Positions 2,166-61,140 of a stretch of 64,000 nt of DNA are shown here, one piece after another; position 1 is the first letter of the stretch, and each line of letters starts with the position of its first letter. Made by a program: the position numbers and the translations under genes. The stretch is from positions 1,547 through 65,546 of the forward strand of contig JAHJEX010000071.1 of assembly GCA_018825385.1 (NCBI GenBank), given 5' to 3'. The stretch comes from Patescibacteria group bacterium. Its GTDB lineage: Bacteria; Patescibacteriota; Patescibacteriia; UM-FILTER-42-10. The notes below the pieces were generated by a model. It was not told the DNA's origin. It made no database searches and worked only from the letters and a program-made list of their open reading frames with translations.

Positions 2166-2167
2166 AT

Positions 2168-3703: not shown

Positions 3704-3705
3704 AA

Positions 3706-5154: not shown

Positions 5155-5155
5155 T

Positions 5156-8113: not shown

Positions 8114-8119
8114 ACATAC

Positions 8120-14997: not shown

Positions 14998-14999
14998 AT

Positions 15000-16564: not shown

Positions 16565-17131
16565 TTACATCTTATCAATTTTTATTACAGAATTATTATC
16601 CAGGTAATAATTTCGAAATGAGGAGTACTTCCAGTCTTCGGACCTTTTAACCAATCCGGCACGCACAGGATTATTGTGTATGTAATCAAGCTTCTCTTCA
16701 AGATCTTTTTGGTTACGCACAACATGTTCCCAAAATTTCCCTTGGATTACTTTGCCAGAACTTACATTTGCTTTATTGTAGCTATTTGCGAATACTCCAT
16801 CTATATGATGCATTATATCAGAAACTGTTCTTTTCATAGGAGGAATTATCAGTAAGTGAATATGGTCAGGCATGATAACAAAACCTACCAGCTTAAATGC
16901 AAATTTGTTCCGACAATAACTGATAGTTTTAATGTAAAGCGCTTTAAACCTATCCGATTCGAATATTTTTCTTTTTTTATATGGATTCACTGTTATAAAG
17001 TAGCAGTGGTTTTCTAAATAAATTCTTTTCCTCATTTTTTTTATTAGTCGGACCAAACAAGATTTGGTCCTACGTCTTAAAACTAATTCTTTCTCTATTC
17101 GCTTTGCGAGCCTGCCTGCATATAGCCCCAT
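16565..17131 (-). mobile_element. IS200/IS605-family Y1 HuH transposase (TnpA) or REP-associated tyrosine transposase (RAYT)-like gene embedded in the operon
   Basis: The HuH motif reads VMPDHIHLLIIPP, with a Tyr-containing C-terminal region (SFRNYY). The stop lies 3 nt from the downstream paralog start. A 9-bp-stem hairpin sits 64-88 nt upstream of the ATG. Confidence 0.65.
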
Positions 17132-30400: not shown

Positions 30401-30771
30401 GCATGATAAGACTGAATTTTCAAGATAGTGCCAAAGGCAATCACCATTAATGCAATAATAAACATCATATTGGAAAGATCTCTAACAATTGTCCAACCGA
30501 TGTGCACTGCTGGTGGTGCTTCTAAATTTACAAAATTATTGAAGCTAAATACGCCGACTAACTGTTCGATCAATATACCCAACAATGTTCCAAGCAACTT
30601 CAAAATCATACTGCCAATATCTCCTATCACTCCAATAAGTGCCTTGGAAAAACCCAAATCTGCTGCTTTTGTTACTCCCGGAAAAATCATTCCCACAAAA
30701 ACAACTACCCCCAACACACCAAGTAGGGGCAGAAATTTTTTCCTAAATCGTGATAAGTTCTTCCTAAACAT
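27436..30771 (-). CDS. Large integral membrane protein, TrbL/VirB6-like topology (signal peptide, ~6 TM helices, Gly-rich loop, ~750-aa charged hydrophilic tail)
   Basis: Signal peptide MFRKNLSRFRKKFLPLLGVLGVVVFVGMIFPGVTKA. Multiple long hydrophobic helices span residues 40-330. The tail is rich in K/E/D. Only the architecture is similar to VirB6/TrbL; no sequence motif supports it. Confidence 0.4.
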   Translation of the reverse strand: MFRKNLSRFRKKFLPLLGVLGVVVFVGMIFPGVTKAADLGFSKALIGVIGDIGSMILKLLGTLLGILIEQLVGVFSFNNFVNLEAPPAVHIGWTIVRDLSNMMFIIALMVIAFGTILKIQSYHARSLLVKMIIMAVLINFSKTITGMFIDAAQVIMLTFVGAFKDSAPIVLTVGLNLAQMTSFAQDTDGLKGFFSVLAAIFLANAMLVVAIAVIIAMLIIIVARILMLWILVILSPVAFIASVLPNTSRYASQWWQSLGKNLISGPILAFFLWLSLSIISTSAGMPINLSELEGGGGGDLGGTIGAIETDGKSADLPKGATAIMTTQNMFNYIITIALLITGIMLTQQLGVMGGSTLGSFPGKLKSMGVGAFTKPFSVGWRVTQRPRGAIGRKIQEKVPIVSPAFWKGMGERGRKLKEIEDTKTAGKGEEAMEKIMQEWVPGMGDRLKNTFKGYGLFAKTEERKGAAFPRAEEARRKVINQRISDINQAMGSSTDAKEKMMEFADRGWKQGGTQGEDTRMAILEMATGKGNMDDVFTHFMDHYVKTEQDAKEWGFEDKKDEEGNVVMTGFEQSRVMNEETQKIFAMHYMGLDREKFDPNAIAARKGLKLNLNDIAKENNLDLETKSGRKQARTIAAQNRTHVEDTARDSAADASDIDQARLSTLFALSQGARKVGHWEQVTTNLNPETGKYYMMSDDQKIEEVKGEARKQGTRGLIQNMAPHNFVSQVKDEDGKWNYDLDPENMTGYQKRMLSEILTPQMVAEIHHLQTRVPQILSGTINGIGEENAFFDADGMPTSPEKLENWKKLYDQNPNIMRAVWNMAHRGERKDVGRAIPIDEGWEGLAQDNENEKANKEKREPINLKKKVKEAEVPDVKKVATEMDSDVSKKIEAGEEFEMGGHTYRKSKGVGADKKPVWQKLKDGKQVDTLTQDKVVEEKNAKVAAVKGLDIDMGSIEEAIGENISDITVGMDLAGMEEALGKISGELERGAMATVESLSDLTKSFGGVVNKLSDSIVKISDPGKRDSLEKTLGDLKSGMKNAGEGQIQDPISQQRLLHIMGKILKAMKAENRPKGSAGSPSGTGASAEKGENKERGGKTDRAVDEEKGKGEQS

Positions 30772-30790
30772 ATTTCGGCTGTATATGAGT

Positions 30791-33700
30791 TTAGCTTGGA
30801 TAGACAGTAATTACTCCGTCAAACCCCTGATAGTCACGAACACCGATACTGCAATCTCGACTACCTGAATCGGTTTCCGGTTGGTCGTTACAGAATCCCC
30901 AGTTGTCGATCAACATTATTTCTATATTATAGTTTAGTATCCCCCCCGGAGCATCATAGGTGTGAGACATTAAGTGTGGCTGGCTTGGGTCAGATTTTGG
31001 CGCACCATTCCACATAATATGACTTGTGGAAGTATCGCCCCAATCCACAACTATATGCTTTAATGCTTCCTGTTCCGGATCAACAAAGCTATTGAAAGTT
31101 AAGGTAACTGATCCTCCACCAAATAATTCCACATCACCGGTTGCACCATTTACAAGTACATTATCAATCGTAGGCAGAATCCCGCATAGGTCAGTTTCTC
31201 CTGGTAATCCCGGCCAAGTCGGGCGTGGTCCCAAGCCTGCATTACAACTGTCCCCAGGGAGAGCACAATCTGTGTCATTAACACATGCTGCACCGGAAAT
31301 ATCACATTCCATATTGCAAAGTGGCATTGTCACGAAAGCATCATTCCAATTTTGCGCCCATACAGCTGTATTGGTTATATCCTGATAACTACCCGTACCA
31401 TCATCCCAGCGCCAAGCACCATAAATATAACCGAAAATTCTTTGCAATCTTTCTATCGCCCAGTCATCTCCGGTAGGATCAGTTGGTCCATCTCCTCTTC
31501 CTCTTACCTCCGATCCAACGCATGAACCGCCATTAATATCTATACAATCCTGATCAATTTCACACGCAACCGTTTGGGCATCACTGCAGAACCCAACACC
31601 CACGCATACACCGCGATCATCTGCCGTACCGCCGCAATCAGCGTCAGTTGAACATGGATACTGGACGCTACGATGCGCTGTATCATAATCACCGCCAAAA
31701 CAAACTTTTGGTACACAGTCACCATCACAACTATATGGCCTGCCTGATCTTTGATTGTTGAAAGCAGGTAGCGGATAATTATCAAAATTATCAACATACA
31801 GCGGATTTAAAAGTTGCTGATCCCCCATACTGTCCCAAGTTTGTCCGGGATCATCTCCCTGCCCCGCTACGATCGCACCGAATGGCGCAGAGTCCGAACT
31901 ATAAGTGTATAAAAGTTCGGGAATTACATAAGAGCTGGTATTAGCGGTCCGCTGAGCCCATGCCTTATCATCAGTTGGGCTTACAACTTTTGCGATTTCT
32001 TTGCACGAATCACGCAAATATATGTATCCCATTACCCACATTCCTCCGAAATTCGTGCTACCGTCGCTCATATGGACAAAATAGCTTTCTATCGTCTTAT
32101 CAACGGAGTCAAAATTAACTTTTACTTCAAAACAGTTCAGGTCTTGGCAATTGATTGACTCACCTGGATCTTTGTTCCAGCCACCCTGATCGCCTAAAAT
32201 ATGCCAGCCATTTTCGGCATTGGCCACCCAGGTATAGGCATTACTGGGCCAGTCACCATGCGACGATCTTTGCTGGACCCATTCGATCCGGTCAATTTCC
32301 CACTCGTGGTAGTTTACATCTTCACCAATTGCCGCGACTGTCCGGTTGATTCCGTTGCCACCGGTGCAGCTGACCCATCCGTAAAACCCGGCCGCCGCCC
32401 CTCCCGGAAGCATCTGCCGTCCGCCGCAGGATGCGACAGACCTTAACTGCGGTATATTTTCCAGAGACCCACAAGCATAGTCGCCACTACAACCTTGATT
32501 AATATAATTCCAAGGGATATCGCATTCCGCATTCAGCCAGTTAGTCTGTACCGGACGGCGATAACCATAAGCTTGTTCCACTAAACCTGTTCTCACATTG
32601 TTTTCACCGCAAAAATCCTGCGTATCTATATTGCCGGGGAGAGTGCGCGTCGTATCGTCAAAATTGCCACTTGCCTCCACACACATATATAGAGGCCTAC
32701 GGCCTTTGTAGCCGGCCGGCTCCACCGTGCCGAACACGCTGGATTCACCAGAAATTACATCAACCGGCCACCAAGTGATACACTTATTAGCATTGGTTGG
32801 ATCCGTTTCAATACAATACCCTTGCCAGCCGTTGAATTCTACCAGGTCACTATTGGTATATTGGCACTTTTCAGAGTCTTCACGCGGATAGGCGCGACAA
32901 GAACGCACTATATAGGCTTCATCGCCGTCTGTAGTAGAAAGGTTTGCCGCCGGCACTATTGTAAAACCAGCTGCTCCTGCCGGTCGCCAGGTGAAAATCA
33001 TTTGAGCATCACCCAAATTTTGGTAATATTCAACCATTATCGGATGCCAGCCAGCATCAAGGCCGAATAGGGTTACAGAATTGTTATTATCTCCATCATT
33101 CCAATCATCCAGAACAGGATTTGCCAGATCATCAATATAAAAACGTAATCCATCATTTGTATTGAATTGGAAACCATAGTTGCCGGCAGTTTCTAATAAG
33201 ATTTGCCCGGTCCAGCGTACCGCCACTTGCTCATCCGTTCCGGCTTGGTCATTGAGATGATTAGCCATCGCCGGAACAGAGTAGTCTAAGTTGTTACTAA
33301 CATATGTTCCTAAGTAACTACCAAAAACCCGTTCAAGTTCCGTAGTTAAACTGCTCTGCGGAATCAGATAGCTGTTTGGAATAGCTGTAATTCGGTTCCA
33401 GTCTGGATGGGCCATTCCTTCAACTACTGATGTAGCTGAGTTGTTTGTCCAAGCAATTGGCGATATTTCTCCGTCTCCATTAGCGTCCCATGCATACTCA
33501 ACGCAGAATGGGTTAGGTATTCCTCCTCCGCAATCAGAAGGATCCCATTGTCCGGTAACCCAGCCAAGTTGTAAGCCACCATATGCACCTTCTGCATTAT
33601 TAAACTCTATTTTTATTGGATGCCAACCTGCTGTGAAGTACTCGGAATACATAAATCCTAAAGTTGGAATATTACCCCAGGCGCTGACTATTTCTGCACC

Positions 33701-36700
33701 GGGTGATAAATCATCTACCCAGATTCTTACTCCATCATTTACATTGAAGAAAAGAGTATAAATTCCTGACGAGGGGAAATTTATACCACCTTCCCATCTT
33801 GCAGAACTTCCTTCAATTATGAGATCATTATTATTTGGTACAAAAGCCTGCATTTCTCCAGGAATAGTAACGAATCTATCCGCATTACCACAAAGACAGC
33901 AAATACTATCTGGTATACTACAATCTATTGCTGCTGGAGATTCGTCATAACATGCCACGCACGGCTCATACCAGTTAATCATTGGTACCTCGTATGGATT
34001 TGCAGCGCACGGCACCGATAGATTGGTATCTGTAAAACACTCCTCATTAAGACCGGGAACGCTGGTAACTGTAGGTTGGTACACATGTGTAAAATAATCA
34101 CCTCGAATACCGGGCGAATCAAAAGCCTTCACCGCCAGCGCCGGTTTCATGGAAACATTATCTAATGCGAATGAAATATTTCCGCCCATATTTCTGATTA
34201 GTAAAAAGGTCTGCGCATTTTCGTCCGGTAGGCCGGTAACTTCGACCGGTTCTAGCACCTGCTGTGTCCACCCCGTAGAACCGTTAAAATAACCCAGAAG
34301 ATTTTCACCAACAATATTTACACCATCAAACTGGGCCAGTGAAACAGCTATTTCTTCACTGCCTTCCTGAGGAAGGTATTCAAATCGAAAATCAAAGCTG
34401 GCAATATATTCAGTATTATTTAGAATATTTGATCCCAGATCTACCTTTACACCTAATCCAACAAACGAACAACTACCACCCCCGGTACATTCTGAACCTG
34501 CTAAGATACAAGTTGTTCCTTCATTATCAGATGCATCGTCACAAACTCCCAGCGCCCCAGCTTTATAAAGAAGATAGTTGTTCTCATCTAGTGCGGCATT
34601 GCCCAACGTCTCTTCACCTTCTACTACTATAATTTCACTATCAAGTGCAGGGAAAATTGGCGACCAGGACGGATCCTCATTTACATCTTTGCAGTTAGCA
34701 GTATCTGTTAATTCTTCATTTGGTATGCAATGAGCATCAACAATACAGGAATCACCTTTGTTCTCTTGCTCGTCATCACATACCATAAAGCCTTCTATTG
34801 CATCTGATTCAAAATCTCCAAATTGCACCAAATCTTTGGTTATTGCACCGCCCATTCCTACTTCAAACATTTCTGAATATGGATACAAGCCTTCTATAAT
34901 ATGACATTCTTCACCAAGAGGCCCCGCACAATCCGTAAGCTCCGTCGCTACTGTGCAGGAAACAGAATGATCGTCCTTACATCCATATTGAAGTCCGGCA
35001 CTGACAAATCCGGAAAGGTTTTGGAAATCGTCAAATGGATACGCTCCCGTATCACCGGTTACATTTGCTGGGGGAGTGGTTACCGTACCAGCACATAGAC
35101 CCCCCGGTCCAAGCTCATCACACAGACCTATTTCAAAACATACATCTTCTTTCGTCTTTCCATCACCATCCAAATCTAATTCATCATCAACTTCAAATGA
35201 TGTTTTACAATAAAGCCATTCATCACATACCCTGTCTCTTCTTACTTTAAGAACAGTGTTGGAATCATTATAAGGACTACTATTCGCTGTATATAGTGGA
35301 TTACATGAACCACCGAGACATTCAGCTCCCGTAGCAGTACAAGGATCTCCTGGGTTTGTGCCACCAGAACATGTGCCATATCTGCCCAGCACCGGCGGTC
35401 CGAATTCAGGATTCTCTATACAAATGCCCGTTGGCGGACTGCAATCAACATCAGTTTCACACTCTTGACCATAAAAAGTTACGTCACTAGGATCCAGATT
35501 ACAGTATTTTTTCAGGCCATCCGGACTGAGGTCGGCCGAATAATTAATTGACTGTGACGTATCGTTAAATAATTTACATCCTTTTTCTTCGTTGACTACG
35601 CCATTGCAACTGGTTGCATCAACCGTTCTGTCTATATAGTAATAGGTTTCACATCCGGGTAATCCTCCTACACTTTCTGCGCAATTCTCATCAAATAGCA
35701 CTCCGTTTTCATATGGACAGTTTGGTTGACAGCCAACCGGATCCACTGGATCACGATATGCTTCACATCCGTCAAATTCTGCTTCACAAACACCCACCCA
35801 TGGTATGCATCGGCTGCCATTCGTGCATTCAACTGGATTATCAGGGTTGCAGACAGTTCCTGCTGGCAATGCCGGGCTTCCTCCTTCACAAACAAAAGCA
35901 GGAATAGCAGGATTAGGCGGAGTGTCAGTCTTGTCGCAAAGTTCTTCTGTTCCGACAATATACCAGTCAAGAACATATGATCCTAATAGCTGCTTATACT
36001 CGCATAAACGACCGGCTGGATCTTTGAAAAATGTTTTTCCGGTACTGCCCGAGAATCCAAACTCTTCACATCCGACCTCTGAGTGTGCACACCATATATC
36101 AGAATACTGATCGGCATTATCTTTTAGATACACCGTATCATATCCGGTTATGTTGTTACGCTCATCAAATACAGGCTCACCCAATTCCGCACAGCCTTTA
36201 TCGCTAGATGAACAACGCACTTCCTCTTTATTAATAAACCTGACTGTCTCGTCTGGTGGAATGGTAATGAAGCTCTGAGTCTGTAGCGGATCACCATAGT
36301 CTTCTGAGAAAGGACTAGAAGTATTCATTGTATCTATGAGCGCTTCACATCCTGCTACATTTTCTTCACATAATTTGGAAAATGATTTTAGGTAATGGAT
36401 ATTTCCGTCACTATCTGAATACGCTTCACAATTTTCAGATCCATAGCATGTTCTAAATGAATCGCGCACTAGATACTGGCTATTTGTTGTTTCTACCAGT
36501 TCAATGTTATCAAGATATATCTGATTTCCAACACTTAAAATTTGTAGACTGCTTGGTAGTCCGGTCCAACCTGCCGGATCAGATATATCTATAGTTACCG
36601 GACCAAGTCTAAACTCTTGCCATTCCGGCACAAGAGTAACTGTAGGTGGAAGTGTTAAAACGGTCTGATCGGCAAACCAAGTATTGCCATTTGCACCCGC

Positions 36701-39700
36701 TACTGTATCAAATCTGACAGTTATCGTTTCTGAAGCTGCGGGAGTCATTCCCCAGAATCTTAATTCATATGTTTTGCCGTCTTCTACTGTCACTGTTTTA
36801 TCAATATCAGTATTAACATTAGAAGCCAATGAGTGCCCACCCGCTATTACTGAATTAGTGCTTACTGTTGCTGGTGTCCAACCCTGAGTAGTACCGTCTT
36901 CAAAATCATCAAAAAATATTTGTCGATAGTTGTAGCCAGAATTTCCCAGATATTCCCTACAGCCCATAAATTCTTGCGGACAAGCTCTACTTTCACTTGG
37001 AATACCATAATAAATGTCTTCATCTATACTGTTTCTTTCAGGGTGACAATCATCTGAAACAGTGATGGTTTGTGATTTATATCTATAAAATACATTTAAG
37101 CTTGCATCAAAGAATTGTGTGCAATCAGGGTTGGTTCCATATTCATTTGTTCCTGCAGGACCACAGTCAATTACAGTATTCGATCCATCTTCACAATCTA
37201 AAGGAAGTGTTGGACCCACTTCTAAATGAGTACAAGGTGCATATGGTAGGCCTATATCACTCTGTTTCAGTCTAAATGCTCTCAACTGATAACCGGCTAC
37301 GGCATCCCCTTCCCAAGCATAGTAAGGAGCAGTATTTATTTCACCTGGAAGAACACATTGTTTTAGATATGTATAATATTCTTTACCTTCGCCACCATCT
37401 GCTACTTCATCTAGATTTGTGTATTCTTCACACCCGACATATGCCGCAGAACATTGTAGACCGGTATTTGGAATGAAAGATATGCTAGGAAAGCAGTATC
37501 CAGTACCGCAATCCAGGCTCGTTAAACATGCTTCTCCCTCATTCCCACCGCCATGACAATAATTGCCAGAACGCTCTATGTGATTTGGATTAGGAACAAT
37601 GGTAGTTAATGGTACTTCCTCAAATGCCTTGCACCCTACATCCTGGCTTGGACACTGATCAGAAGGTGTAATCTGTGCCGGTATTTGATCTCCGCCAGCA
37701 AGCGGGTCATACCACTGACAACCTACATCATCCGGATCACATGTATCTCTTTCTCCGGTTAGATATATCCTGTTTACAGTTCCATAATCAGCATATTGGC
37801 CGGCGCTACTTGATTCTTCTAACATGACCGCGTCATACAACATGTCACAGACACTATCTGCATAAAAACGGACATCAAGCGTTTGTTCAGAAGCAACTAT
37901 CGTGTCAGGAAGGTTTACAGTGACCTCATACCTTTGCCATTGATCACTTACGTTATCAATAGCTGTTGAAGAAGATTCTATGAACCCAGTATTTCCAACA
38001 TCTACCTGACCATCATTGTTGCAAGCAGTTGGATCAAGAGACATGGCATAAACTGAAAATGTAAATGATCTTCCCCTGATAGGAGATCCCGTATTAAATG
38101 AAGACATTATTCCTTCACTGAGTGGTGCGCCAGGAAGCATGCTAAGTGCTGTTATGCCAGAGAAAGGTATAACGCCTGGGGTATCTGGGGTAACGGCTTC
38201 TATAGAAGTACCCCCTATCGGCACCCATGCATCAAATGTGTTAGAAACCAGATTGTCCGGATCGCCTGTGTAGTATTCAAAGCTAGCATTGTTGATTAAA
38301 TTTGTGCCGTGGGTTGTTCTTATGTATTCATTACATCCGGCTACATCAGCAGTACAGGTTTCGGCACCGGCAGTAAGATGTGACATCCAATCTCTATAAT
38401 CCGGCCCAGGAGTATAAACAAGCCCCCATGGATCAAAGAGTCCATCTGACCACATGCTATAATCATCATTATTTACATCATCCCAATAACATTCCCACCT
38501 GTCATCAACCTCATTGTATTCTTTACAATACCATTGGCAGCCGACATTATCAGCGGAACATCCGTTGAAGTCGAGCGTGTCCCTTAGATAGGAATCCGGT
38601 TGTCCTTGACTGTCAATATAAGTTGTACATGTATTGTAATAGTCAGGACACGAATCTCCTCCGAAGCGCCAGATAGGATCCTCTTTTGTGCAGTAACCGT
38701 ATTGCTGACAGTTACCCGCCTCGTCTTCTGATAAACATGATTGATCGTCAACGCAGGAAGTGTTGCGTTGAATTTGACGTACTTTCGGAGTTTCACTTTT
38801 TCCATCGGCATCAAGATATTCATCAAAGAGGAAAGTCTCGCCATAACCACTATTTACACACTGGCTTGCCGGTGCTTTCAAAACCCAGTCCGGATCTATC
38901 AACTGATAGTATTGTGAAGATTCATCATCAAATTCCCTTATCAGATCATTAAGACTTCTAGCCCCGCCACCATATTCTCTGATATATGAAGCAGCCAGTT
39001 CCCAACTGACAGGTACCACTCTATGCCTTCTAAGAAGAACCAGGCTGCGGTAAGGATACCCTTCTGTATAATTCAACTGGGAACCACCATCTCCATAGCC
39101 AAACGGCTTGTTTCCGTTTATATATCCCCGGTCAATCGCCTCTTCTAAACGGAGTTGCTGTTCCACTGCTGTACGGAAACTGGCATCAATAACACAGTTC
39201 TCCGGCTCTGCAAAACTTGTAGGACATGAAGAAAGGGTATTTAAAATATCCACTGATCCACCCGCACTAAGGTTGGGCTGATTGAACGAAGCAAATTTTG
39301 CTTCCGCTGCAGCAATGCTCGAGGTTCTTCCAAATTGTCCCCCGTATTGCGAAGAAGTACTGTCTGCCGCCGGATTCAAACCTTTAACAAGAATGAATTC
39401 CATGTACTTTTTAACCAGTGTATTGGTAAACACGCCAACCATGTCAGCTATAATACTGCCTGTATTTGTTTCTTCTGCCGTAGTTGTTTGGGATAAAGCA
39501 AAATTTTGGGTTGCCTCAATTGTAGCCGCGGGCGTCTTTGTTCGACCGGTAATTGCACTCACTAAATCCTTAAAGCCTTTTTCTTGTGATGCAGCTTCTG
39601 CTGTTTCAGCTTCAAATTTTTTTTCTACTGCCCCTTTATAAACTGTTAAATATTGGCCTACGTTAGTTTGCTCATCGCCCCACATATTAGGAAATTCTTT

Positions 39701-40315
39701 TAGGATTGTCCTAGATAGCTGGGCGGGATCAATTCCTTTTATAGAAAGTCCTCCATCAAATGTTACCTGAGAAAAGATTCCATCATTGAATCTATCCAGA
39801 ATTGAAGTTACAGTACATTTTGCTTGGCGAGGCTCTTCCAGTCCTAAATCTAAAGCTATTCCATACTGGATATTGACTTTGATAGCCGGGTCAATATCGC
39901 ACAAACTCCACCCCCATCCATCGGTTGTGAGAGTATCTAAAAAATCACCAACTGCTGCATTACCGGCATCTCTCACTGACTCCTTAAAATCTTCGGTATT
40001 GAACAAAGGTTCTTGCCCTGCGCCTCCGCTGGCAATTTTTACCGCCGCGTCATAAGCAATTTGTTGAGTAAAGACTCTCAAAGCATTCTTGTAAGCAATA
40101 TCCCCCGAAGTCTTTACTACCGACGTTACAGCCTCTGACAACGCACGAGGGATGTCTTGAATTGTGGTAGAAAAAGTAATATCACCAAAACCAAACAAAG
40201 CATTCGCTGGTTTTGGCATGAAGGTGACAATTTGTACAAAAGCAACAACTAAAACAAAAACACCAATTACTGTTCTTTTAATGTGGTGTTTTGATTTTTT
40301 TTGAGGGCCTTGCAT
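30791..40315 (-). CDS. Giant (3174 aa) signal-anchored, Cys-rich surface protein with two PA14 domains (adhesin-like)
   Basis: N-terminal anchor KRTVIGVFVLVVAFVQIVTF. PA14-like segments: LFFNVNDGVRIWVDDLS...WHPIKIEFNNAEGAYGGLQLGW (about 33500-33800) and FQFNTNDGLRFYIDDLA...WHPIMVEYYQNLGDAQMIFTW (about 32950-33250). There are hundreds of Cys residues in CxxC/CxxxC contexts. Confidence 0.7.
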   Translation of the reverse strand: MQGPQKKSKHHIKRTVIGVFVLVVAFVQIVTFMPKPANALFGFGDITFSTTIQDIPRALSEAVTSVVKTSGDIAYKNALRVFTQQIAYDAAVKIASGGAGQEPLFNTEDFKESVRDAGNAAVGDFLDTLTTDGWGWSLCDIDPAIKVNIQYGIALDLGLEEPRQAKCTVTSILDRFNDGIFSQVTFDGGLSIKGIDPAQLSRTILKEFPNMWGDEQTNVGQYLTVYKGAVEKKFEAETAEAASQEKGFKDLVSAITGRTKTPAATIEATQNFALSQTTTAEETNTGSIIADMVGVFTNTLVKKYMEFILVKGLNPAADSTSSQYGGQFGRTSSIAAAEAKFASFNQPNLSAGGSVDILNTLSSCPTSFAEPENCVIDASFRTAVEQQLRLEEAIDRGYINGNKPFGYGDGGSQLNYTEGYPYRSLVLLRRHRVVPVSWELAASYIREYGGGARSLNDLIREFDDESSQYYQLIDPDWVLKAPASQCVNSGYGETFLFDEYLDADGKSETPKVRQIQRNTSCVDDQSCLSEDEAGNCQQYGYCTKEDPIWRFGGDSCPDYYNTCTTYIDSQGQPDSYLRDTLDFNGCSADNVGCQWYCKEYNEVDDRWECYWDDVNNDDYSMWSDGLFDPWGLVYTPGPDYRDWMSHLTAGAETCTADVAGCNEYIRTTHGTNLINNASFEYYTGDPDNLVSNTFDAWVPIGGTSIEAVTPDTPGVIPFSGITALSMLPGAPLSEGIMSSFNTGSPIRGRSFTFSVYAMSLDPTACNNDGQVDVGNTGFIESSSTAIDNVSDQWQRYEVTVNLPDTIVASEQTLDVRFYADSVCDMLYDAVMLEESSSAGQYADYGTVNRIYLTGERDTCDPDDVGCQWYDPLAGGDQIPAQITPSDQCPSQDVGCKAFEEVPLTTIVPNPNHIERSGNYCHGGGNEGEACLTSLDCGTGYCFPSISFIPNTGLQCSAAYVGCEEYTNLDEVADGGEGKEYYTYLKQCVLPGEINTAPYYAWEGDAVAGYQLRAFRLKQSDIGLPYAPCTHLEVGPTLPLDCEDGSNTVIDCGPAGTNEYGTNPDCTQFFDASLNVFYRYKSQTITVSDDCHPERNSIDEDIYYGIPSESRACPQEFMGCREYLGNSGYNYRQIFFDDFEDGTTQGWTPATVSTNSVIAGGHSLASNVNTDIDKTVTVEDGKTYELRFWGMTPAASETITVRFDTVAGANGNTWFADQTVLTLPPTVTLVPEWQEFRLGPVTIDISDPAGWTGLPSSLQILSVGNQIYLDNIELVETTNSQYLVRDSFRTCYGSENCEAYSDSDGNIHYLKSFSKLCEENVAGCEALIDTMNTSSPFSEDYGDPLQTQSFITIPPDETVRFINKEEVRCSSSDKGCAELGEPVFDERNNITGYDTVYLKDNADQYSDIWCAHSEVGCEEFGFSGSTGKTFFKDPAGRLCEYKQLLGSYVLDWYIVGTEELCDKTDTPPNPAIPAFVCEGGSPALPAGTVCNPDNPVECTNGSRCIPWVGVCEAEFDGCEAYRDPVDPVGCQPNCPYENGVLFDENCAESVGGLPGCETYYYIDRTVDATSCNGVVNEEKGCKLFNDTSQSINYSADLSPDGLKKYCNLDPSDVTFYGQECETDVDCSPPTGICIENPEFGPPVLGRYGTCSGGTNPGDPCTATGAECLGGSCNPLYTANSSPYNDSNTVLKVRRDRVCDEWLYCKTSFEVDDELDLDGDGKTKEDVCFEIGLCDELGPGGLCAGTVTTPPANVTGDTGAYPFDDFQNLSGFVSAGLQYGCKDDHSVSCTVATELTDCAGPLGEECHIIEGLYPYSEMFEVGMGGAITKDLVQFGDFESDAIEGFMVCDDEQENKGDSCIVDAHCIPNEELTDTANCKDVNEDPSWSPIFPALDSEIIVVEGEETLGNAALDENNYLLYKAGALGVCDDASDNEGTTCILAGSECTGGGSCSFVGLGVKVDLGSNILNNTEYIASFDFRFEYLPQEGSEEIAVSLAQFDGVNIVGENLLGYFNGSTGWTQQVLEPVEVTGLPDENAQTFLLIRNMGGNISFALDNVSMKPALAVKAFDSPGIRGDYFTHVYQPTVTSVPGLNEECFTDTNLSVPCAANPYEVPMINWYEPCVACYDESPAAIDCSIPDSICCLCGNADRFVTIPGEMQAFVPNNNDLIIEGSSARWEGGINFPSSGIYTLFFNVNDGVRIWVDDLSPGAEIVSAWGNIPTLGFMYSEYFTAGWHPIKIEFNNAEGAYGGLQLGWVTGQWDPSDCGGGIPNPFCVEYAWDANGDGEISPIAWTNNSATSVVEGMAHPDWNRITAIPNSYLIPQSSLTTELERVFGSYLGTYVSNNLDYSVPAMANHLNDQAGTDEQVAVRWTGQILLETAGNYGFQFNTNDGLRFYIDDLANPVLDDWNDGDNNNSVTLFGLDAGWHPIMVEYYQNLGDAQMIFTWRPAGAAGFTIVPAANLSTTDGDEAYIVRSCRAYPREDSEKCQYTNSDLVEFNGWQGYCIETDPTNANKCITWWPVDVISGESSVFGTVEPAGYKGRRPLYMCVEASGNFDDTTRTLPGNIDTQDFCGENNVRTGLVEQAYGYRRPVQTNWLNAECDIPWNYINQGCSGDYACGSLENIPQLRSVASCGGRQMLPGGAAAGFYGWVSCTGGNGINRTVAAIGEDVNYHEWEIDRIEWVQQRSSHGDWPSNAYTWVANAENGWHILGDQGGWNKDPGESINCQDLNCFEVKVNFDSVDKTIESYFVHMSDGSTNFGGMWVMGYIYLRDSCKEIAKVVSPTDDKAWAQRTANTSSYVIPELLYTYSSDSAPFGAIVAGQGDDPGQTWDSMGDQQLLNPLYVDNFDNYPLPAFNNQRSGRPYSCDGDCVPKVCFGGDYDTAHRSVQYPCSTDADCGGTADDRGVCVGVGFCSDAQTVACEIDQDCIDINGGSCVGSEVRGRGDGPTDPTGDDWAIERLQRIFGYIYGAWRWDDGTGSYQDITNTAVWAQNWNDAFVTMPLCNMECDISGAACVNDTDCALPGDSCNAGLGPRPTWPGLPGETDLCGILPTIDNVLVNGATGDVELFGGGSVTLTFNSFVDPEQEALKHIVVDWGDTSTSHIMWNGAPKSDPSQPHLMSHTYDAPGGILNYNIEIMLIDNWGFCNDQPETDSGSRDCSIGVRDYQGFDGVITVYPS

Positions 40316-45110: not shown

Positions 45111-48100
45111 CTATTTTACTACAATATTTAGCAACTTGCCTGGAACAAATATTTTATTTATAACCTGTTTATCAGAAATCAGTTTCTTAATTTTTTCATT
45201 CCTTTCAATGTATTGTAGCACATCTTCTTCGGTTACGTCAGTTGGCATCATGCTTTTATCTTTCAGTTTTCCATTAATTTGAATCACAAACTCAATTTCT
45301 TCATCCTTTGCTAAATTTGAATCAAAGTGCGGCCAGGGTGATAAATGAATAGATTCTTTGTGACCTAGCTTTTTCCATAATTCTTCTGCCAAGTGAGGAG
45401 CAAAAGGAGACAAAAGCAACAGGAATTTTTCAAATGCTTCTTGCCCAACTTCTTTCTGATTGTTCATTTCATTAATCATAATCATCAGTGCCGACACAGC
45501 TGTGTTGAAATGGAATTCATTTATATCCTCTGTAACTTTCTTAATTGTTTTATGAACCAAGTTCCGATCAAATTCTGCACTCTTTTTTACTTTTTCAAAA
45601 AGTAAATTTGCTTTATCCAAAAATCTGCGTACTCCCAAAATACCTTTTGTGTCCCAAGGAATCGCTTCGGCAAAGGGTCCCATGAACATCTCATACATGC
45701 GCATCGTGTCTGCACCGTATTCTTTTATTACATCATCAGGGTTAACCACATTGCCAAGAGACTTTGACATTTTCTTGCCGTCCTCTGCCAGAACCATACC
45801 GTGGGAAATTCTTTTCTGGTAGGGTTCCGGTTGAGGCACCATTTTTAAATCATAAAGCGCCTTGTACCAGAAACGTGAATATAAAAGATGCAGAGTTGTA
45901 TGTTCCATCCCGCCGTTATACAGATCAACCGGCATCCAATATTTCAGTGCTTTTTTAGAAGCAAATTCTTTTGCATTATGTGGATCGCAGTAGCGCATAA
46001 AATACCAGCTGGAACCCGCCCAGTTTGGCATCGTATCTGTTTCTCTCTTTGCATCACCCTTACATTTTGGACACTTAACATTTACCCAGTCTTTTATTCC
46101 AGCCAGAGGTGATTCCCCAGTATCAGTCGGTTCATAGTTTTTCACTTTAGGCAGTTCTACTGGAAGATCCTTTTCCGGGACAGGGACAATACCAACTGGC
46201 ATCTGACTACCTTCTACTATTTCTTCAAATATTTCAGGGAAGGTAAATGCACCGCCATTAAGTATTGTAAAATGACTTCTGCCCTTTAGCATTCTAAAAT
46301 CTGCTTTTAGTACTTTTTTGTAGTGTTTAGGAACTGATTCTGGAATGTAGTGGTCATTGTCTGAATGAAAATAAACAATTTTTTCAGTATTATTATGGAT
46401 TTGATCATAAGGTATATCCGGCTGGTTAAATTTATGTTGATATTCTGTTGGATCATTGGGATGTTTTTTTGCATAAGCTTTCCAATCAATGTCACGACAT
46501 GTTGGTGCAACCAGAATCAGTTTTCCGATCTTCTTTTTTAGTTTGGAAATAAATTGCATTGCAGCTACCCCACCAAGGGAGTGTCCAATTATTACTGAAT
46601 TCTCGTTCAGTTTATCCTTATATTGTTCCAAGAAACTTAACCACGTATCCAGATTAGGTTCCATAGGATCTGGCATATCAGGAGCAACCACTTCATGACC
46701 CAGTTTTTCTAATTCGTCCGCTAGCCAACCATACCAAAGATTTCTACCATAATTACCTGTTCCATGGATAATTAAAACTGTTTTCTTTTCTCTCTCTTTG
46801 CAATTTTCGCAATGAATCAGAGGAATTGGCTCTCCCCAATAATGCTGGCGAGAAAAGATCCAGTCGCGAAGTTTGTAATTGACCTCCGCTTTACCATATC
46901 CTTCTTTTTCTATCCATGTAGTTATCCTTTTTATTCCTTCTTTTGAATTTAACCCATCAAATTGTCCGGAGTTAATTATCTTTCCTTCTCCAGTATAAAA
47001 TTCCTTCTTAATATCACCACCAGAAATCACTTCCTGAATAGGAAGATTAAATTTTTTGGCAAACTCATAATCACGCTCATCGTGAGCAGGCACCGCCATA
47101 ATTGCACCCGTACCATAAGAGATTAAAACATAGTCCGCCACCCAAACAGGCATCTCTTTACCGCTCGCTGGATTGATCGCTTTAATTCCTTTCAATTCAA
47201 CACCGGTTTTTTTCTTTGCTAAATCAGTCCTTTCTAAATCGCTTTTATTTTGTGATGCTTTGACATATTTTTCTACTTCCTTTGAATTGCCAATTTCTGA
47301 CAATAGTTTTTCTACCAATTCATGCTCCGGTGACAATACCATATAGGTCGCACCGAAAAGAGTATCCGGTCTTGTAGTAAATACATTTATTCGATACTTC
47401 AAATCCTTCAATCTAAATTGAACCTTTGCTCCGTCAGATTTTCCAATCCAATTAATCTGTTGGGTTTTAATTTTCTTCAGATAATCTACAGTATCTAAAT
47501 CATCAATTAGGCGCTGGGCATATTGAGTAATTTTGAATATCCATTGTTTAAGATTTTTTTTACCAGTTTCTGTGCCACAGCGTTCACATTTTCCTGCAAC
47601 CACCTCCTCATTGGCCAGCCCGATTTTACAGGAAGGGCACCAGTTGATTGGCATTTCTTTTTGATACAGTAACCCGGCTTTATAAAGTTGTAAAAAAATC
47701 CACTGTGTCCATTTATAATATTCCGGATCGGTTGTTACCACTTCTCTTGACCAGTCAAACGAAAGGCCCAGAGATTTTAGTTGCAAACGAAAACGCTCAA
47801 CATTTTTCTTTGTGATGTCGGCAGGATTTTTTTTGACTTTAATCGCATAATTTTCCGCCGGCAAACCAAAGGCATCAAATCCCATTGGGAATAAAACATT
47901 ATTTCCCTCCATTCGTTTCTTACGCGCAACAATATCCAATGCCGTATAGCTGCGTGGATGACCGACGTGCAATCCATCCGCCGAAGGATATGGAAATTCG
48001 ATCAGGCAATAAAACTTTTTTTTACTGGAATCGTCTTTGGTGGCATAAAGCTTTTGCTTTTCCCATTGTTCCTGCCATTTTTTTTCTATTGATTGATGAT

Positions 48101-48122
48101 CGTACTTCTGAGTTTCAGACAT
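45111..48122 (-). CDS. leuS: Leucyl-tRNA synthetase with a ~190-aa alpha/beta-hydrolase (YdeN/RBBP9-like serine hydrolase) domain inserted at about 46203..46784
   Basis: HIGH is present as HVGHPRSY and KMSKS as KMSKSLGN. The CP1 editing domain shows [12 protein letters not shown] and [19 protein letters not shown]. The insert between [20 protein letters not shown] and [18 protein letters not shown] contains VLIIHGTG...LWYGW, the nucleophile elbow [16 protein letters not shown] (Asp) and GRSHF (His). Confidence 0.85.
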   Translation of the reverse strand: [1003 protein letters not shown]

Positions 48123-52386: not shown

Positions 52387-53544
52387 TTAATTGTTGATTA
52401 GTTGAAATGAATTATAAAATGTTTCAAATTCGGCATTACGTCCCGCACCGTCATTAATAGCATAAAGCGTATCACTGTCTTCTAGGAAGATTTGTATGTG
52501 TTGCCAGCCGATTATTGTTTCAGTAGTGACCGTTACCTTTGTTGCTTGTTTCCCTCCAACTGTAATTCTTTCCCTTATTTCCTTACGATCAGAAAACTGA
52601 TCACCCATTTTTGCAATCAAAGCATCTTCACCGGTTGAATTGGCACTATAGAGTAAAACAGACCACAAACTGTCACTAATTATTTCTGGCGCAGAAAAAG
52701 TAATAGTTTCTAAAGCAAGATCTGAACCAGATATATCAGCCCGTGCTTCCCATCCACTGGGGTATTGCAATGCAAAATTAGTGTGCGTATATGACTGCCA
52801 ATCATTCTCATCTGATTTGCTTACTAATTTGAATGCTACTATGATATCTTCAAAAATTGGGTAATTAGTATCATCAGAAGCGTTCAGGTCATAGATCCTT
52901 CCATCAAACTCCACTACATAATGGACTCTATTTAAACCAATGGCTGTGCTAAAAACCAGTTTTCTTCCTTTTTGTTGTGAAATTGTAATTTCCTCATCAG
53001 ATATTGGTATGCCGTCTGATAACTGATAGTCTACATTCGTAGATGAAGGCGGATCAATATAGGATATCTGCAAATTATTTACATATGTAGCGACTGTTTG
53101 CTCCGATATTCTGATATTGATAAGTGGCAAGGAAGAGTTTTCAGAAGACCCTATCCATATATCTTCATCATTACTGTCATCATGTATAGAAAAATTAGAG
53201 GGATAGAGAAAAGTAAATCTTTTGTTTTCATCTGTATATTCCTGCCAATTATCTGGAACAGTAGAACTATTAATATTAGCATTGGCTTTGACCTTCGCGC
53301 ATTCACAGCTACATGCACCATTTATTAGTTTATAACTACTGACTGTCCCTGTTTCACAAACCGCTTCTTCCTGACATTTACCAATGCATTCTGTTATTAT
53401 ATTCTTTGAAGGATCCAGATTCTCTTCCACATAATTATTGAAATACCACAAAACACCAAAAGCCAAACCGGTAACTATGGCAACCATGATAAATGCAATA
53501 GAAACTGCGAGAAAAATGTGAATGTAGTTTGTTTGACCCTTCAT
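52387..53544 (-). CDS. Secreted/TM-anchored protein with two W-x-x-Y-T-(D/H) domains; paralog family member 3
   Basis: TM IHIFLAVSIAFIMVAIVTGLAFGVLWYF. DNWQEYTDENKRFTFLYPSNF and NDWQSYTHTNFALQYPSGW. Confidence 0.4.
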   Translation of the reverse strand: MKGQTNYIHIFLAVSIAFIMVAIVTGLAFGVLWYFNNYVEENLDPSKNIITECIGKCQEEAVCETGTVSSYKLINGACSCECAKVKANANINSSTVPDNWQEYTDENKRFTFLYPSNFSIHDDSNDEDIWIGSSENSSLPLINIRISEQTVATYVNNLQISYIDPPSSTNVDYQLSDGIPISDEEITISQQKGRKLVFSTAIGLNRVHYVVEFDGRIYDLNASDDTNYPIFEDIIVAFKLVSKSDENDWQSYTHTNFALQYPSGWEARADISGSDLALETITFSAPEIISDSLWSVLLYSANSTGEDALIAKMGDQFSDRKEIRERITVGGKQATKVTVTTETIIGWQHIQIFLEDSDTLYAINDGAGRNAEFETFYNSFQLINN

Positions 53545-59204: not shown

Positions 59205-59261
59205 GTTTTTTTACGTTACAACTTATATGCCCCTACATTATACAGAATTTTAGAAAAAGAA

Positions 59262-59285
59262 AAAGGGCGCAACTAGCGCCTAAAC
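59262..59285 (-). terminator. Hairpin (ggcgc-aacta-gcgcc) followed by a T-run on the minus strand, ~400 nt downstream of the guanylate-kinase-like gene
   Basis: The minus-strand sequence reads ggcgctagttgcgccc followed by tttttcttttt. It may terminate an unannotated transcript in the 486-bp gap. Confidence 0.35.
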
Positions 59286-59690
59286 ATAGTTATTATAGCA
59301 CTGTCACGCCCAAGGCCCTTGCCCAACTTTCGTTCGTCATAAAGACAATTGAGAGATTGGTGATGCAAAGACTCTAAGCATTTTCTTTCCTATGAGGGTT
59401 TTAGGGAGAAAATGACAATTCTCTACCATTTTTGTGGTTGATCATATTTTTATATATGTCTACCTCTTTTATTTTTGTTTTGTACCCTCGTCAAAATAGT
59501 AAAGAACGTTATCCCTACAAGCGCTTATGTTATAGGGAGGAATTCCTTGCTATTTTGCTCAAGAAAGATGTTTTTTCAATATGCGCTTGTACACGTGAAT
59601 TCATTTCACTTACGAACAGTATATCATAATTTTTCCATCATGTCAACAATATTGCCTAATTGCAAAGTGATTTGGCTAATATTAGCCAAA

Positions 59691-61043
59691 TCATATACAA
59701 TTCTTAGCAAGGGAAGTATTTTTGGATAGTATATTTAGGTATAAGTCGCTATTCTCTACATCAATTTCGGCATTTGCGATTATATATTGATATGGGTCGT
59801 TTCCTGAACATCGAGAATATGTGTCTTTCACAAGTCTTTGATTAGAATCACTGTTTGATAATAGTGCTAAACGGACAATCTGAGTTGAGGAGGACACAAT
59901 TATATAATCACCCATAATTGAATAAGCCAGAGTTGAGTCCTCTTTATTCGATAATTCATATATCTTTTCTCCTTTGTATTCAATGACTGTCGGTTCAACA
60001 TTTTCCGGTTTCGGTACAAGCTCATAAACGATCGTGCCATCAGGCAAAGTTAAAGGCACTTGTGAAGGAAATTTCTTCGCCCAAATTTGTGCCACCATTT
60101 GCTTAAAAGATTCCCATTGATCACTTTTTGGCTGATTCAATTCTATTATCACACCCGGTGACAAGTCATCTTTTGGATAAAAGAATAAAGTTTGTTGATA
60201 TGTGGGTGCCTGAATGTCTGAAGAGTTCTGCTCTGTAAAAAAATCAAACGTTACAGGTCCTACAACGTACGCAAGCTGTACATCTTTTGGCACAAATTTT
60301 AATAATCCCTCAAATGACCGTTCTTTGCTTTTTATTTCGTAAGTTACTGAAATATTTTTATAAGAATCTTTGATGATATCTTTAATGTTAGGATGAAAAA
60401 AAACAAACGCCATAAAATATCCTGCTAATATGATCACAACCAGAACACCAAAAATAATTTTAACTCCAACCCTATTTCCTGATGTTTTCTTTATTATGTC
60501 CCTTACCTCTCTAACAGTCTGCTCCAGTTTGCCTTCATGATTTATAACTTTATAGTCATAAATTTTTTCGTACTTTAACCACTCTTTTGTGTATTTCATT
60601 CTTTCCTCAACATAATTGGATTCCACTTTGCTTCTTCTTTTTATTCGGTTCTTTAGAGTCTTAAGATCCGGTGGAGCAATATATATTGATTTCACATCTG
60701 ACAGTTTTTTCTTTATTATCTGTACTCCTTTATACTCTATCTTCCAAATTCCGATTTTCTTGGATTTACCTACTCGCTCTAATTCTTTTTTTGTTGTTCC
60801 ATAAAAATTACCATTATAAGCTTTGGCGTATTCTATAAATTCACCCCTTTTAATCTTGGCTTTAAATTCTTTTTTACTAATAAAGTGATATGGATTACCT
60901 TCAGAATCACCTTTTCTCTTTTTTCTGGTGGTTGTTGTAATAACCCTTTCAATATCAAAATAGTTACGGAGTCCTTCGATTACTGAATCTTCCCCCGCTC
61001 CAGACGGACCGGAAATAATAAATATGTTTTCCCCTGCTTTCAT
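59691..61043 (-). CDS. Guanylate-kinase-like domain with a degenerate P-loop, fused to a TM helix and a ~230-aa extracytoplasmic domain
   Basis: The P-loop reads IISGPSGAGEDSV, with GAGEDS in place of GxGK[ST]S. The GMP-binding region TTTRKKRKGDSEGNPYHF...YGTT is conserved. TM segment VKIIFGVLVVIILAGYFMAFVFF. Confidence 0.6.
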   Translation of the reverse strand: MKAGENIFIISGPSGAGEDSVIEGLRNYFDIERVITTTTRKKRKGDSEGNPYHFISKKEFKAKIKRGEFIEYAKAYNGNFYGTTKKELERVGKSKKIGIWKIEYKGVQIIKKKLSDVKSIYIAPPDLKTLKNRIKRRSKVESNYVEERMKYTKEWLKYEKIYDYKVINHEGKLEQTVREVRDIIKKTSGNRVGVKIIFGVLVVIILAGYFMAFVFFHPNIKDIIKDSYKNISVTYEIKSKERSFEGLLKFVPKDVQLAYVVGPVTFDFFTEQNSSDIQAPTYQQTLFFYPKDDLSPGVIIELNQPKSDQWESFKQMVAQIWAKKFPSQVPLTLPDGTIVYELVPKPENVEPTVIEYKGEKIYELSNKEDSTLAYSIMGDYIIVSSSTQIVRLALLSNSDSNQRLVKDTYSRCSGNDPYQYIIANAEIDVENSDLYLNILSKNTSLAKNCI

Positions 61044-61099
61044 AAATTCCTTTGAATATGTCTTGACTATACTCTATCACAAAACGCTTTCCGAATAAA

Positions 61100-61140
61100 C
61101 CAAAACCGCCCCCACGCTTTATAATAAGTGTGGGGGCGGA
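61100..61140 (-). terminator. Rho-independent terminator of pnp; REP-like hairpin ccgcccccacgc-tttataataa-gtgtgggggcgg
   Basis: The reverse complement is near-identical to the terminator at 49780-49812. The A-run at 61100-61106 gives a T-run on the minus strand. Confidence 0.65.

Follow-up and report, generated by a model that had tools for sequence, protein, structure and literature searches.

Can a guanylate kinase (Gmk) dispense with the lysine of its Walker A motif, or does the loss of this residue mark a protein that is no longer an enzyme? Of all residues in P-loop nucleoside triphosphatases (NTPases) and kinases, the Walker A lysine is the one considered indispensable, and mutants in which it is changed to alanine or glutamate serve as the standard "dead" controls. 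The question is raised by a gene, gmk, in a 64,000-nucleotide stretch of DNA from a Patescibacteria group bacterium (assembly GCA_018825385.1, contig JAHJEX010000071.1, positions 1,547–65,546 of the forward strand; from here on, this whole stretch is referred to as the window), where an open reading frame on the minus strand (59691–61043) encodes 450 amino acids comprising a Gmk domain, a transmembrane helix, and a C-terminal domain. As described below, the Walker A lysine has been replaced in more than 100 species, with a reciprocal replacement of aspartate by lysine on a neighboring strand, which amounts to a natural experiment. The novelty is 2-fold, residing in the wiring of the catalytic site across a clade and in the architecture of the protein in the lineage of the window.

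The gene product is a guanylate kinase family member without the Walker A lysine

The gene product is a member of the guanylate kinase family with the full Gmk fold, and both sequence and structure place it there. Residues 7–186 matched the Pfam family Guanylate_kin (PF00625; E = 2.3e-36, 125.6 bits against a cutoff of 25.2), which was the sole Pfam family above cutoff in the 450-amino acid protein, as well as ~25 solved guanylate kinases (best E = 7e-31). The score against the NCBIfam equivalog TIGR03263 was barely above its cutoff (160.9 versus 160.45 bits), and that against the PhnN equivalog TIGR02322 was below it (37.4 versus 156 bits). An AlphaFold2 model of the protein (mean predicted local distance difference test score (pLDDT) of 82) was matched by Foldseek to yeast Gmk (1GKY) with a template modeling score (TM-score) of 0.90 and a root mean square deviation of 1.5 Å, and to the human transition-state complex (9LO3) with a TM-score of 0.82. 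From PF00625, TIGR03263, and the model, we place the Gmk domain, presumably cytoplasmic, at residues 6–186 (60486–61028; this and all other elements of the gene are on the minus strand). The original prediction, made from the sequence alone, had described a Gmk domain with acidic residues in place of the P-loop Lys and Ser/Thr, a transmembrane helix, and a C-terminal domain of ~230 residues, and the profiles, alignment, hydropathy, and AlphaFold2 model all confirm this outline.

Pairwise alignment with human GMPK allowed the active site to be read residue by residue. All residues given in PMC12297293 are found at the expected numbers in the human sequence used for this alignment. The P-loop of the window protein, GPSGAGEDS (residues 12–20, 60984–61010; in full, GPSGAGEDSV), has Glu-18 (codon GAA, 60990–60992) at the position of the Walker A lysine, aligned to human Lys-17, and Asp-19 (codon GAT, 60987–60989) at that of the Mg2+-ligating serine, aligned to human Ser-18; both the lysine typical of guanylate kinases and the hydroxyl residue that follows it are absent. 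The two acidic codons had been predicted correctly, but they lie at 60987–60992 rather than at about 60990–60995. Because no Lys or Arg occurs between residues 4 and 25, a register shift within the P-loop is excluded, and if the missing lysine is supplied from elsewhere, as had been considered, it would plausibly come in three dimensions from Lys-101 (codon AAG, 60741–60743). This residue is aligned to human Asp-101 and lies at the end of strand β3, in the segment W100-K101-I102-E103 (60735–60746).

The remainder of the active site is intact. The GMP-binding segment TTTTRKKR (residues 36–43, 60915–60938) holds Thr-36, Arg-40, and Arg-43, the counterparts of human Ser-37, Arg-41, and Arg-44, and further aligned pairs (window to human) are Ser-20 and Thr-19, Tyr-52 and Tyr-53, Glu-71 and Glu-72, and Asn-168 and Asn-171. 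The equivalent of human Tyr-81 is retained, and Glu-103 is aligned to the guanine-binding human Asp-103, so that all GMP-binding residues (Thr-36, Arg-40, Arg-43, Tyr-52, Glu-71, Tyr-81, and Glu-103) are present; the elements named in the original prediction were likewise found, as TTTTRKKRK, Tyr-52, Glu-71, and Tyr-81–Gly-82. The LID segment (60600–60647) retains Arg-133, which stacks on the adenine, Arg-137, and Arg-148, all of which carry identical numbers in the two proteins, and together with Asn-168 these complete the set of ATP adenine and LID residues. In the human enzyme, Lys-17 binds the γ-phosphate and AlF4−, Ser-18 is a direct Mg2+ ligand, and neither K17A nor S18A has detectable activity; Asp-101 contacts Mg2+ through water next to the P-loop and, together with Ser-37, forms a K+ site; Asp-103 binds guanine; Arg-133 and Asn-171 hold the adenine; Arg-44, Arg-137, and Arg-148 surround the transferred phosphate, the latter two at the γ-phosphate; and S37P abolishes activity (PMC12297293). 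The window protein has lost the equivalents of Lys-17 and Ser-18 and keeps the other residues listed in that study, except for Lys-101 at the position of Asp-101.

Glutamate or glutamine at the Walker A position is widespread in Patescibacteria

Glu or Gln at position 18 together with Asp-19 was found in 15 of 16 database homologs, with kinase-domain identity down to ~40%. A scan of one genome per GTDB species with the back-translated motif GPSGxG[EQ]DS[VI]I returned at least 119 matches, 117 of which were genuine Gmks of this type (from here on, E/Q-type), corresponding to at least 117 species. Nearly all of the 117 were standalone proteins of 182–206 residues, and the 450-residue architecture occurred in one of them (L056) among the matches listed. 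The carriers are labeled Moranbacteria, Magasanikbacteria, Falkowbacteria, Buchananbacteria, Paceibacterota, or "Patescibacteria group," and Gln rather than Glu occupies position 18 in ~16–19% of E/Q-type sequences. The standalone genes recur in two contexts, S1 protein–gmk–tilS–ftsH and rluD-like–gmk–rplS, each of which contains both Glu and Gln forms. In a third context, in Patescibacteria UBA2100 (L028:5512–6698), two tandem Gmk-like genes lie between secY and adk (secY–gmk–gmk–adk); the second is E-type (GPSGVGEDSV) with Lys-101, and the adjoining adk keeps GPSGAGKGT. We conclude that the E/Q form is an ordinary-size Gmk residing in housekeeping clusters of a large part of the Patescibacteria. 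It had been considered surprising that the organism's only Gmk should take so unusual a form, but this distribution and the presence of a Lys-type ortholog in the same genomic slot (see below) favor an unusual form of the organism's Gmk. Searches of the literature (with partial coverage) for the motif strings, for Gmk in Patescibacteria and the candidate phyla radiation, and for non-canonical P-loops returned no description of the variant.

Conservation across these proteins extends to the whole nucleotide-binding site. The glycine frame GPSGxG was 100% conserved in the 117 Gmks found with the motif, and, among the matches listed, Lys-101 was present in 115 of 115, and Arg-40, Arg-43, Tyr-52, Glu-71, Arg-133, Arg-137, Arg-148, and Asn-168 were each kept in at least 114 of 117; Thr-36 also belongs to the set that is 97–100% conserved across the 117 species, and the remaining GMP-binding residues, Tyr-81 and Glu-103, were likewise conserved there. 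Arg-133, Arg-137, Arg-148, and Asn-168 were, in addition, invariant in the homolog alignment (A1). The claim that ATP binding would be abolished as in the membrane-associated guanylate kinases (MAGUKs) is not supported, given this retention of the P-loop glycines, LID arginines, and adenine contacts; DLG-type domains have no P-loop.

Several further observations concern E/Q-type genes. About 40 metagenome-assembled genomes (MAGs) labeled "uncultured Bdellovibrionales," "Pseudobdellovibrionaceae," or "Gammaproteobacteria" carry such a gene (L006, L009, L011, L014, L015, L021, and others); because their gene order equals that of named Moranbacteria and Magasanikbacteria/Falkowbacteria, these labels are doubtful, and the genomes look like Patescibacteria bins with misassigned taxonomy. 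The MAG JADHVC01 has two E-type genes (L060 and L069) that are 67% identical and both downstream of an rluD-like gene; given the shared context and this level of identity, two populations in one bin are more likely than paralogs. In three clusters (P0011–P0013; L005:10001–11005), an E-type Gmk domain is fused to a C-terminal NUDIX hydrolase domain, so that the Lys-less domain also forms part of a further architecture for nucleotide salvage. An apparent S1–Gmk fusion (P0014) was set aside as a likely product of gene calling or frameshift, as it comes from an assembly with many split genes and S1 is the usual upstream neighbor.

Replacements at positions 18, 19, and 101 are coupled

An exhaustive HMMER search of 1.84 billion representative sequences yielded 19,892 Gmk-family proteins, the best 150 of which were analyzed at the three positions. 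Among these best 150, the 29 domains with Glu or Gln at position 18 had Asp-19 in 27 cases and Lys or Arg at position 101 in 27 cases. Lys or Arg at position 101 was found in 19 of the 36 domains that combine Lys-18 with Asp-19 and in none of the 94 that have Lys-18 without Asp-19, where position 101 was most often Asp or Glu (56 domains) or Val (20 domains). Asp-19 is, in other words, widespread; Lys or Arg at position 101 is tied to Asp-19; and Glu or Gln at position 18 is tied to both. In these sequences, the three changes are nested, the canonical state being followed by Lys-18/Asp-19/Lys-101 and this, in turn, by Glu-18 or Gln-18/Asp-19/Lys-101. The E/Q class has also gained Trp-100, Tyr-104, Tyr-151, and Trp-155, of which the last two come after the LID arginines and Trp-155 stands where 81% of canonical sequences have Glu; these gains indicate remodeling of the ATP-phosphate and LID region rather than decay.

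In a neighbor-joining tree calculated with the three focal sites masked, Lys, Gln, and Glu types were intermixed in one clade, and parsimony gave ~9 switches between Lys and non-Lys states, a count that is indicative only because the tree is rough. One such pair can be followed at a single locus. The Lys-type protein P0010 (GVGKDT) has the same transmembrane helix and C-terminal domain as the window protein, the latter 27% identical, and the gene order gmk–dksA/traR-like–lspA–RNHCP–comM-like is common to P0010, P0003, and the window. Because P0010 shares both architecture and synteny, the change from Lys to Glu arose within one orthologous gene and not in a spare paralog.

A rewired active site would account for the coupled replacements

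We propose that the E/Q-type protein is an active kinase in which the lysine and a Mg2+-serving carboxylate have swapped places, a reading to which we give an even chance. The carboxylate would have moved from β3 to the P-loop (Asp-19), and the positive charge that contacts the β- and γ-phosphates from the P-loop to β3 (Lys-101). The side chain of Lys-101 is ~2.5 Å longer than that of Asp and could reach the region of the Mg2+, the γ-phosphate, and the K+ ion, which makes it, from covariation and the structures of human GMPK, a plausible three-dimensional substitute for the Walker A lysine. With two lysines near the phosphates in the intermediate, the Walker A lysine would become dispensable and could drift to Glu or Gln. 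The ammonium group of Lys-101 may also take over the role of the K+ ion, as it stands at the position of the K+-binding Asp of human GMPK (Ser-37 and Asp-101), where a tethered ammonium could replace the cation. Glu-18 or Gln-18, for its part, may ligate a metal or position Lys-101 in a charge-reversed version of the contact between the Walker A Lys and the Walker B Asp, an interaction known in other P-loop kinases (PMC8517177). P-loop NTPases can be activated either by a K+ ion or by a Lys/Arg finger, and exchange of the ion for a tethered ammonium group has precedent among them (10.1101/439992). So wired, the enzyme would still catalyze GMP + ATP ↔ GDP + ADP, and in the fused form of the window, the domain would face inward and hold GDP synthesis at the membrane.

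A number of points weigh against an active kinase. Loss of the Walker A lysine abolishes activity in every P-loop enzyme tested, human GMPK included (PMC12297293), and no enzymatic data on any E/Q-type Gmk were found in the literature searched (with partial coverage). Some Patescibacteria have no Gmk, with GDP obtainable from polynucleotide phosphorylase (PNPase), so kinase activity is not obligatory and the protein may have been repurposed. The covariation counts ignore shared ancestry and are not phylogenetically independent. In UBA2100, the first of the two tandem genes (203 residues) reads GPTASGESTF, in which Glu takes the Walker A position and is followed by Ser-Thr, and position 101 is Asn; this paralog is a second, independent Lys-less Gmk lineage, and the compensation model does not explain it. 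Finally, the search for a second, canonical gmk covered the 64-kb window, in which tblastn found none, and ~120 fetched loci of 8–20 kb each; within these loci, a second copy was found only in UBA2100, where it is also Lys-less. TIGR03263 is one of the bac120 single-copy markers, which makes a second copy unlikely, though possible.

What else could the acidic P-loop represent? There is virtually no chance that it stems from a sequencing or assembly error at the two codons in the metagenome-like sequence of the window or that the gene is a chimeric fusion of gmk with a membrane protein gene. Cross-genome conservation already refutes this: the E/Q18–Asp-19 pair is shared by 15 of the 16 homologs and by at least 117 genomes, many of them independent assemblies; a 100% identical copy of the gene is present on a JGI contig; and a single reading frame joins the Gmk domain, the helix, and the C-terminal domain in 10 protein clusters, which come from independent ENA, JGI, NCBI, and Logan assemblies and include members with as little as 32% identity. 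The possibility of a sequencing error left open in the original prediction is thereby removed. Other P-loops in the window are canonical (GPPGTGKT in a ComM-like protein and GLSGTGKT in PEPCK), and these, together with the GAGKGT of the adk beside an E-type gmk, rule out systematic artifact or recoding.

A conserved pseudoenzyme is the main alternative, although we consider it less probable than a rewired kinase. Such a protein would bind GMP, and probably ATP or ADP, without transferring phosphate, and would act as a sensor or regulator responding to guanine nucleotides; in the window lineage, it would be a one-protein sensor or scaffold whose transmembrane helix couples it to the outside domain. 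Loss of the kinase would be tolerated because phosphorolysis of RNA by PNPase gives GDP directly, and it agrees with this that a cultivated Patescibacterium has no Gmk and is proposed to draw its nucleoside diphosphates (NDPs) from PNPase, that Microgenomatia MAGs are reported to lack Gmk, and that pnp is the adjacent upstream gene of gmk in the window and in relatives. The inactive human K17A and S18A mutants (PMC12297293) and the second Lys-less paralog of UBA2100, which has no Lys-101, point the same way, and the NUDIX and ectodomain fusions are as compatible with a regulatory role of the domain as with an enzymatic one. Pseudoenzymes, however, normally lose several catalytic residues, whereas here Arg-43, Arg-133, Arg-137, Arg-148, and Asn-168 are 97–100% kept in 117 species; the three changes are tightly coupled and not scattered; Lys, Glu, and Gln alternate repeatedly in otherwise unchanged proteins, even in orthologs occupying the same slot; and the genes sit among translation and nucleoside monophosphate (NMP) kinase genes such as adk. 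We consider it improbable, and less likely than a pseudoenzyme, that the chemistry itself has changed, with the acidic pair Glu-18–Asp-19 binding an extra or different metal and the protein using another donor, catalyzing hydrolysis, or running the reaction in reverse (GDP + ADP → GMP + ATP), in which case ATP could be harvested from PNPase-derived GDP. Two adjacent carboxylates on the first turn of the P-loop helix would make a plausible metal site; the LID changes Tyr-151 and Trp-155 (usually Glu) are specific to the class; the equilibrium constant of ~2 measured for human GMPK shows that the Gmk reaction can run in both directions (PMC12297293); and both the adjacency of pnp and the NUDIX fusions point to nucleotide salvage. 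Yet no change is seen in the residues that recognize GMP and adenine, which makes different substrates improbable; the frequency of Gln in place of Glu argues against a strict need for the second carboxylate; and an alternative reaction has no direct support.

Taken as a whole, the rewiring proposal holds that the protein is fully active without a Walker A lysine, that this lysine and the Mg2+-serving carboxylate have been traded (Lys-17/Asp-101 to Glu-18–Asp-19/Lys-101), that an ammonium group replaces K+, that the E/Q form is the housekeeping Gmk of much of the Patescibacteria, and that the ectodomain of the window lineage has a novel fold. For this full set of statements together, our confidence falls a little short of even. 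If true, it would be the first "with-no-lysine" P-loop phosphotransferase to be found in nature.

The transmembrane helix and C-terminal domain are a lineage-specific addition

Hydropathy and the AlphaFold2 model agree on a single transmembrane helix, VKIIFGVLVVIILAGYFMAFVFF (residues 194–216, 60396–60464), which has a Kyte-Doolittle peak of 2.85, is the only hydrophobic segment of the protein, and lies in a modeled helix spanning residues 192–216; it was present in 10 of 10 full-length homologs. The C-terminal domain (residues 217–450, 234 residues; 59694–60395) was modeled with a pLDDT of 82 and a predicted TM-score of 0.79 as a stalk helix followed by an α/β domain with a conserved LPDGT motif. 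It contains the only two cysteines of the protein, Cys-412 and Cys-449, both of which are kept in all homologs. We infer an N-in/C-out topology because no signal peptide precedes the folded, nucleotide-using domain, because the charges on either side of the helix mildly favor a positive-inside arrangement, and because the two conserved cysteines both lie in the C-terminal domain. The extracytoplasmic placement in the original prediction is consistent with these features, and the helix and a domain of 234 residues were indeed found.

The fold of the C-terminal domain matched none in the PDB or BFVD by Foldseek at E ≤ 0.001 (best TM-score, <0.4). The family DUF3352 (PF11832) scored 15.9 bits over ~50 residues against a threshold of 26.8, and since matches in the homologs also stayed below threshold (4 of 11, with E = 6e-4 at best), it is a lead at most. 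No free-standing homolog of the domain was found by tblastn beside standalone gmk genes; a word-index search with the domain alone was also empty, but it missed even the 97% identical P0001 and is not evidence of absence. Because the fusion occurs in 10 clusters and in one of the 117 GTDB matches listed, the transmembrane helix and C-terminal domain are best described as a lineage-specific addition. An architecture of a transmembrane helix with a 234-residue ectodomain is one that we have not seen described for any Gmk. That it serves to tether GDP synthesis to the membrane, or to let an external signal regulate the kinase, is speculation in either case.

Comparison with known systems

Canonical Gmk/GMPK (1GKY, 2AN9, and 9LO3; EC 2.7.4.8) has the same fold (TM-score of 0.8–0.9) and domain length as the window protein and the same GMP residues, LID arginines, and adenine contacts, and databases name the window protein "guanylate kinase." The canonical enzymes differ in having Lys, Ser/Thr, and Asp/Glu/Val on β3 where the window protein has Glu (Gln in relatives), Asp, and Lys, and in not having the class-specific Trp-100, Tyr-104, Tyr-151, and Trp-155. 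PhnN, another member of the Gmk superfamily, keeps its lysine, unlike the window protein; its P-loop, GSGKDS, has Asp after the Lys, like the Lys-18/Asp-19 state.

The guanylate kinase-like domains of MAGUKs (DLG/PSD-95, CASK, and MPP) share with the window protein a Gmk origin, a non-canonical ATP site, and a place in a multi-module, membrane-associated protein, and they matched it with E values of 1e-14 to 1e-6. In DLG-type domains, the former GMP site has become a binding site for phosphopeptides, a switch linked to a Ser-to-Pro change at the position of human Ser-37. Alignments with these domains begin only at residues 19–34, their P-loop being lost, whereas the window protein keeps a glycine-rich loop as well as Thr-36 and all nucleotide contacts, unlike the DLG-type domains with their remodeled GMP site. 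MAGUKs are, moreover, metazoan and carry PDZ/SH3 (or L27) modules, whereas the window protein is bacterial, has no PDZ/SH3 domain, and has its homologs in Patescibacteria; neither the degenerate P-loop with lost ATP contacts nor the partners and range of a MAGUK-type protein were found.

Parallels to the proposed relocation come from enzymes in which a missing "invariant" residue is replaced from a neighboring element of the active site. In WNK protein kinases, the lysine has moved from strand β3 to the Gly-rich loop, and the catalytic arginine of thymidylate kinases is supplied by the P-loop in type I enzymes and by the LID in type II enzymes. WNK kinases have a different fold, however, the moving residue of thymidylate kinases is an Arg and not the Walker A Lys, and the relocation in the window protein is, for its part, putative. 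Known NTPases with Lys/Arg fingers, unlike the window protein, keep their Walker A lysine and receive the finger from a different domain or subunit.

These comparisons bear on how a catalytic center can be rewired through a redundant intermediate (Lys-18/Asp-19/Lys-101) and on the interchangeability of a tethered lysine, a K+ ion, and Mg2+. They also bear on annotation: E/Q-type proteins exceed the TIGR03263 cutoff and are named accordingly, so metabolic reconstructions of Patescibacteria count GDP synthesis as present regardless of whether the proteins are active, which touches current ideas of Patescibacteria living on host RNA and PNPase-derived NDPs. With the membrane-tethered form, NMP kinases gain a further domain architecture, new to them, and an ectodomain that has no known fold.

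Genomic surroundings and other features of the window

Upstream of gmk, a ribosome-binding site-like AAAGGA lies 4 nt 5′ of the ATG. Direct reading of the sequence between pnp, which stops at 61158, and the start of gmk revealed a terminator-like hairpin, CCGCCCCCAC-(14 nt)-GTGGGGGCGG followed by a T-run (61097–61139, minus strand), which has a 10-bp G+C-rich stem and a 14-nt loop and stands directly 3′ of the pnp stop codon; a consensus terminator scan missed it because its loop exceeds 8 nt. The hairpin suggests that expression of gmk is not simply a matter of read-through from pnp.

Downstream, gmk stops at 59691 and the dksA/traR-like gene starts at 59204, and the 486 nt that separate them contain a candidate unannotated structured RNA (59258–59650, minus strand). 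The RNA itself, of ~350 nt, would span 59258–59611 and is bracketed by a promoter close to consensus, TTGACA-17-TGATATACT (59646→59618), and by a terminator, GGCGCTAGTTGCGCC followed by a T-run (59280→59266). Conservation of its DNA far exceeds that of the proteins encoded on either side, and long blocks are identical even in L003, the Gmk of which is 32% identical. The predicted fold had a minimum free energy of −102.9 kcal/mol (z = −6.06 versus shuffled sequences), compensatory changes were seen in 11 of 96 predicted pairs across four sequences, and all open reading frames on its strand were ≤31 residues. It matched no Rfam family at E ≤ 0.01, no tRNA, and no tmRNA, and it was found only beside transmembrane-type gmk; a match in L127 was rejected as a chance 21-mer identity within a coding region. 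The element could be a small RNA or a long leader of the dksA–lspA operon.

Elsewhere in the window, a leucyl-tRNA synthetase of 1003 residues (45111–48122, minus strand) has an α/β-hydrolase (Ser_hydrolase/Abhydrolase) inserted at residues 449–623, after the editing domain, and the same domain combination is listed for its L001/L002 ortholog. A 385-residue protein (52387–53544, minus strand) weakly matched PsbP_2 (E = 1.8e-6, 28.5 bits), and its L001 ortholog has no precomputed Pfam match. Eight tandem paralogs of 296–520 residues, 24–45% identical, occupy 675–9010 and 13522–16562 (minus strand), a striking expansion for a small genome; their N-terminal regions of ~400 residues have no Pfam match, and in seven of the eight the C terminus is formed by a PEP-utilizers mobile (phosphohistidine swivel) domain. 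An IS200-like transposase gene (16565–17131) comes next after them. At 27436–40315 (minus strand), a 3174-residue protein with PA14 and CBM_4_9 domains adjoins a 1111-residue protein without a Pfam match, and both are probably surface proteins.

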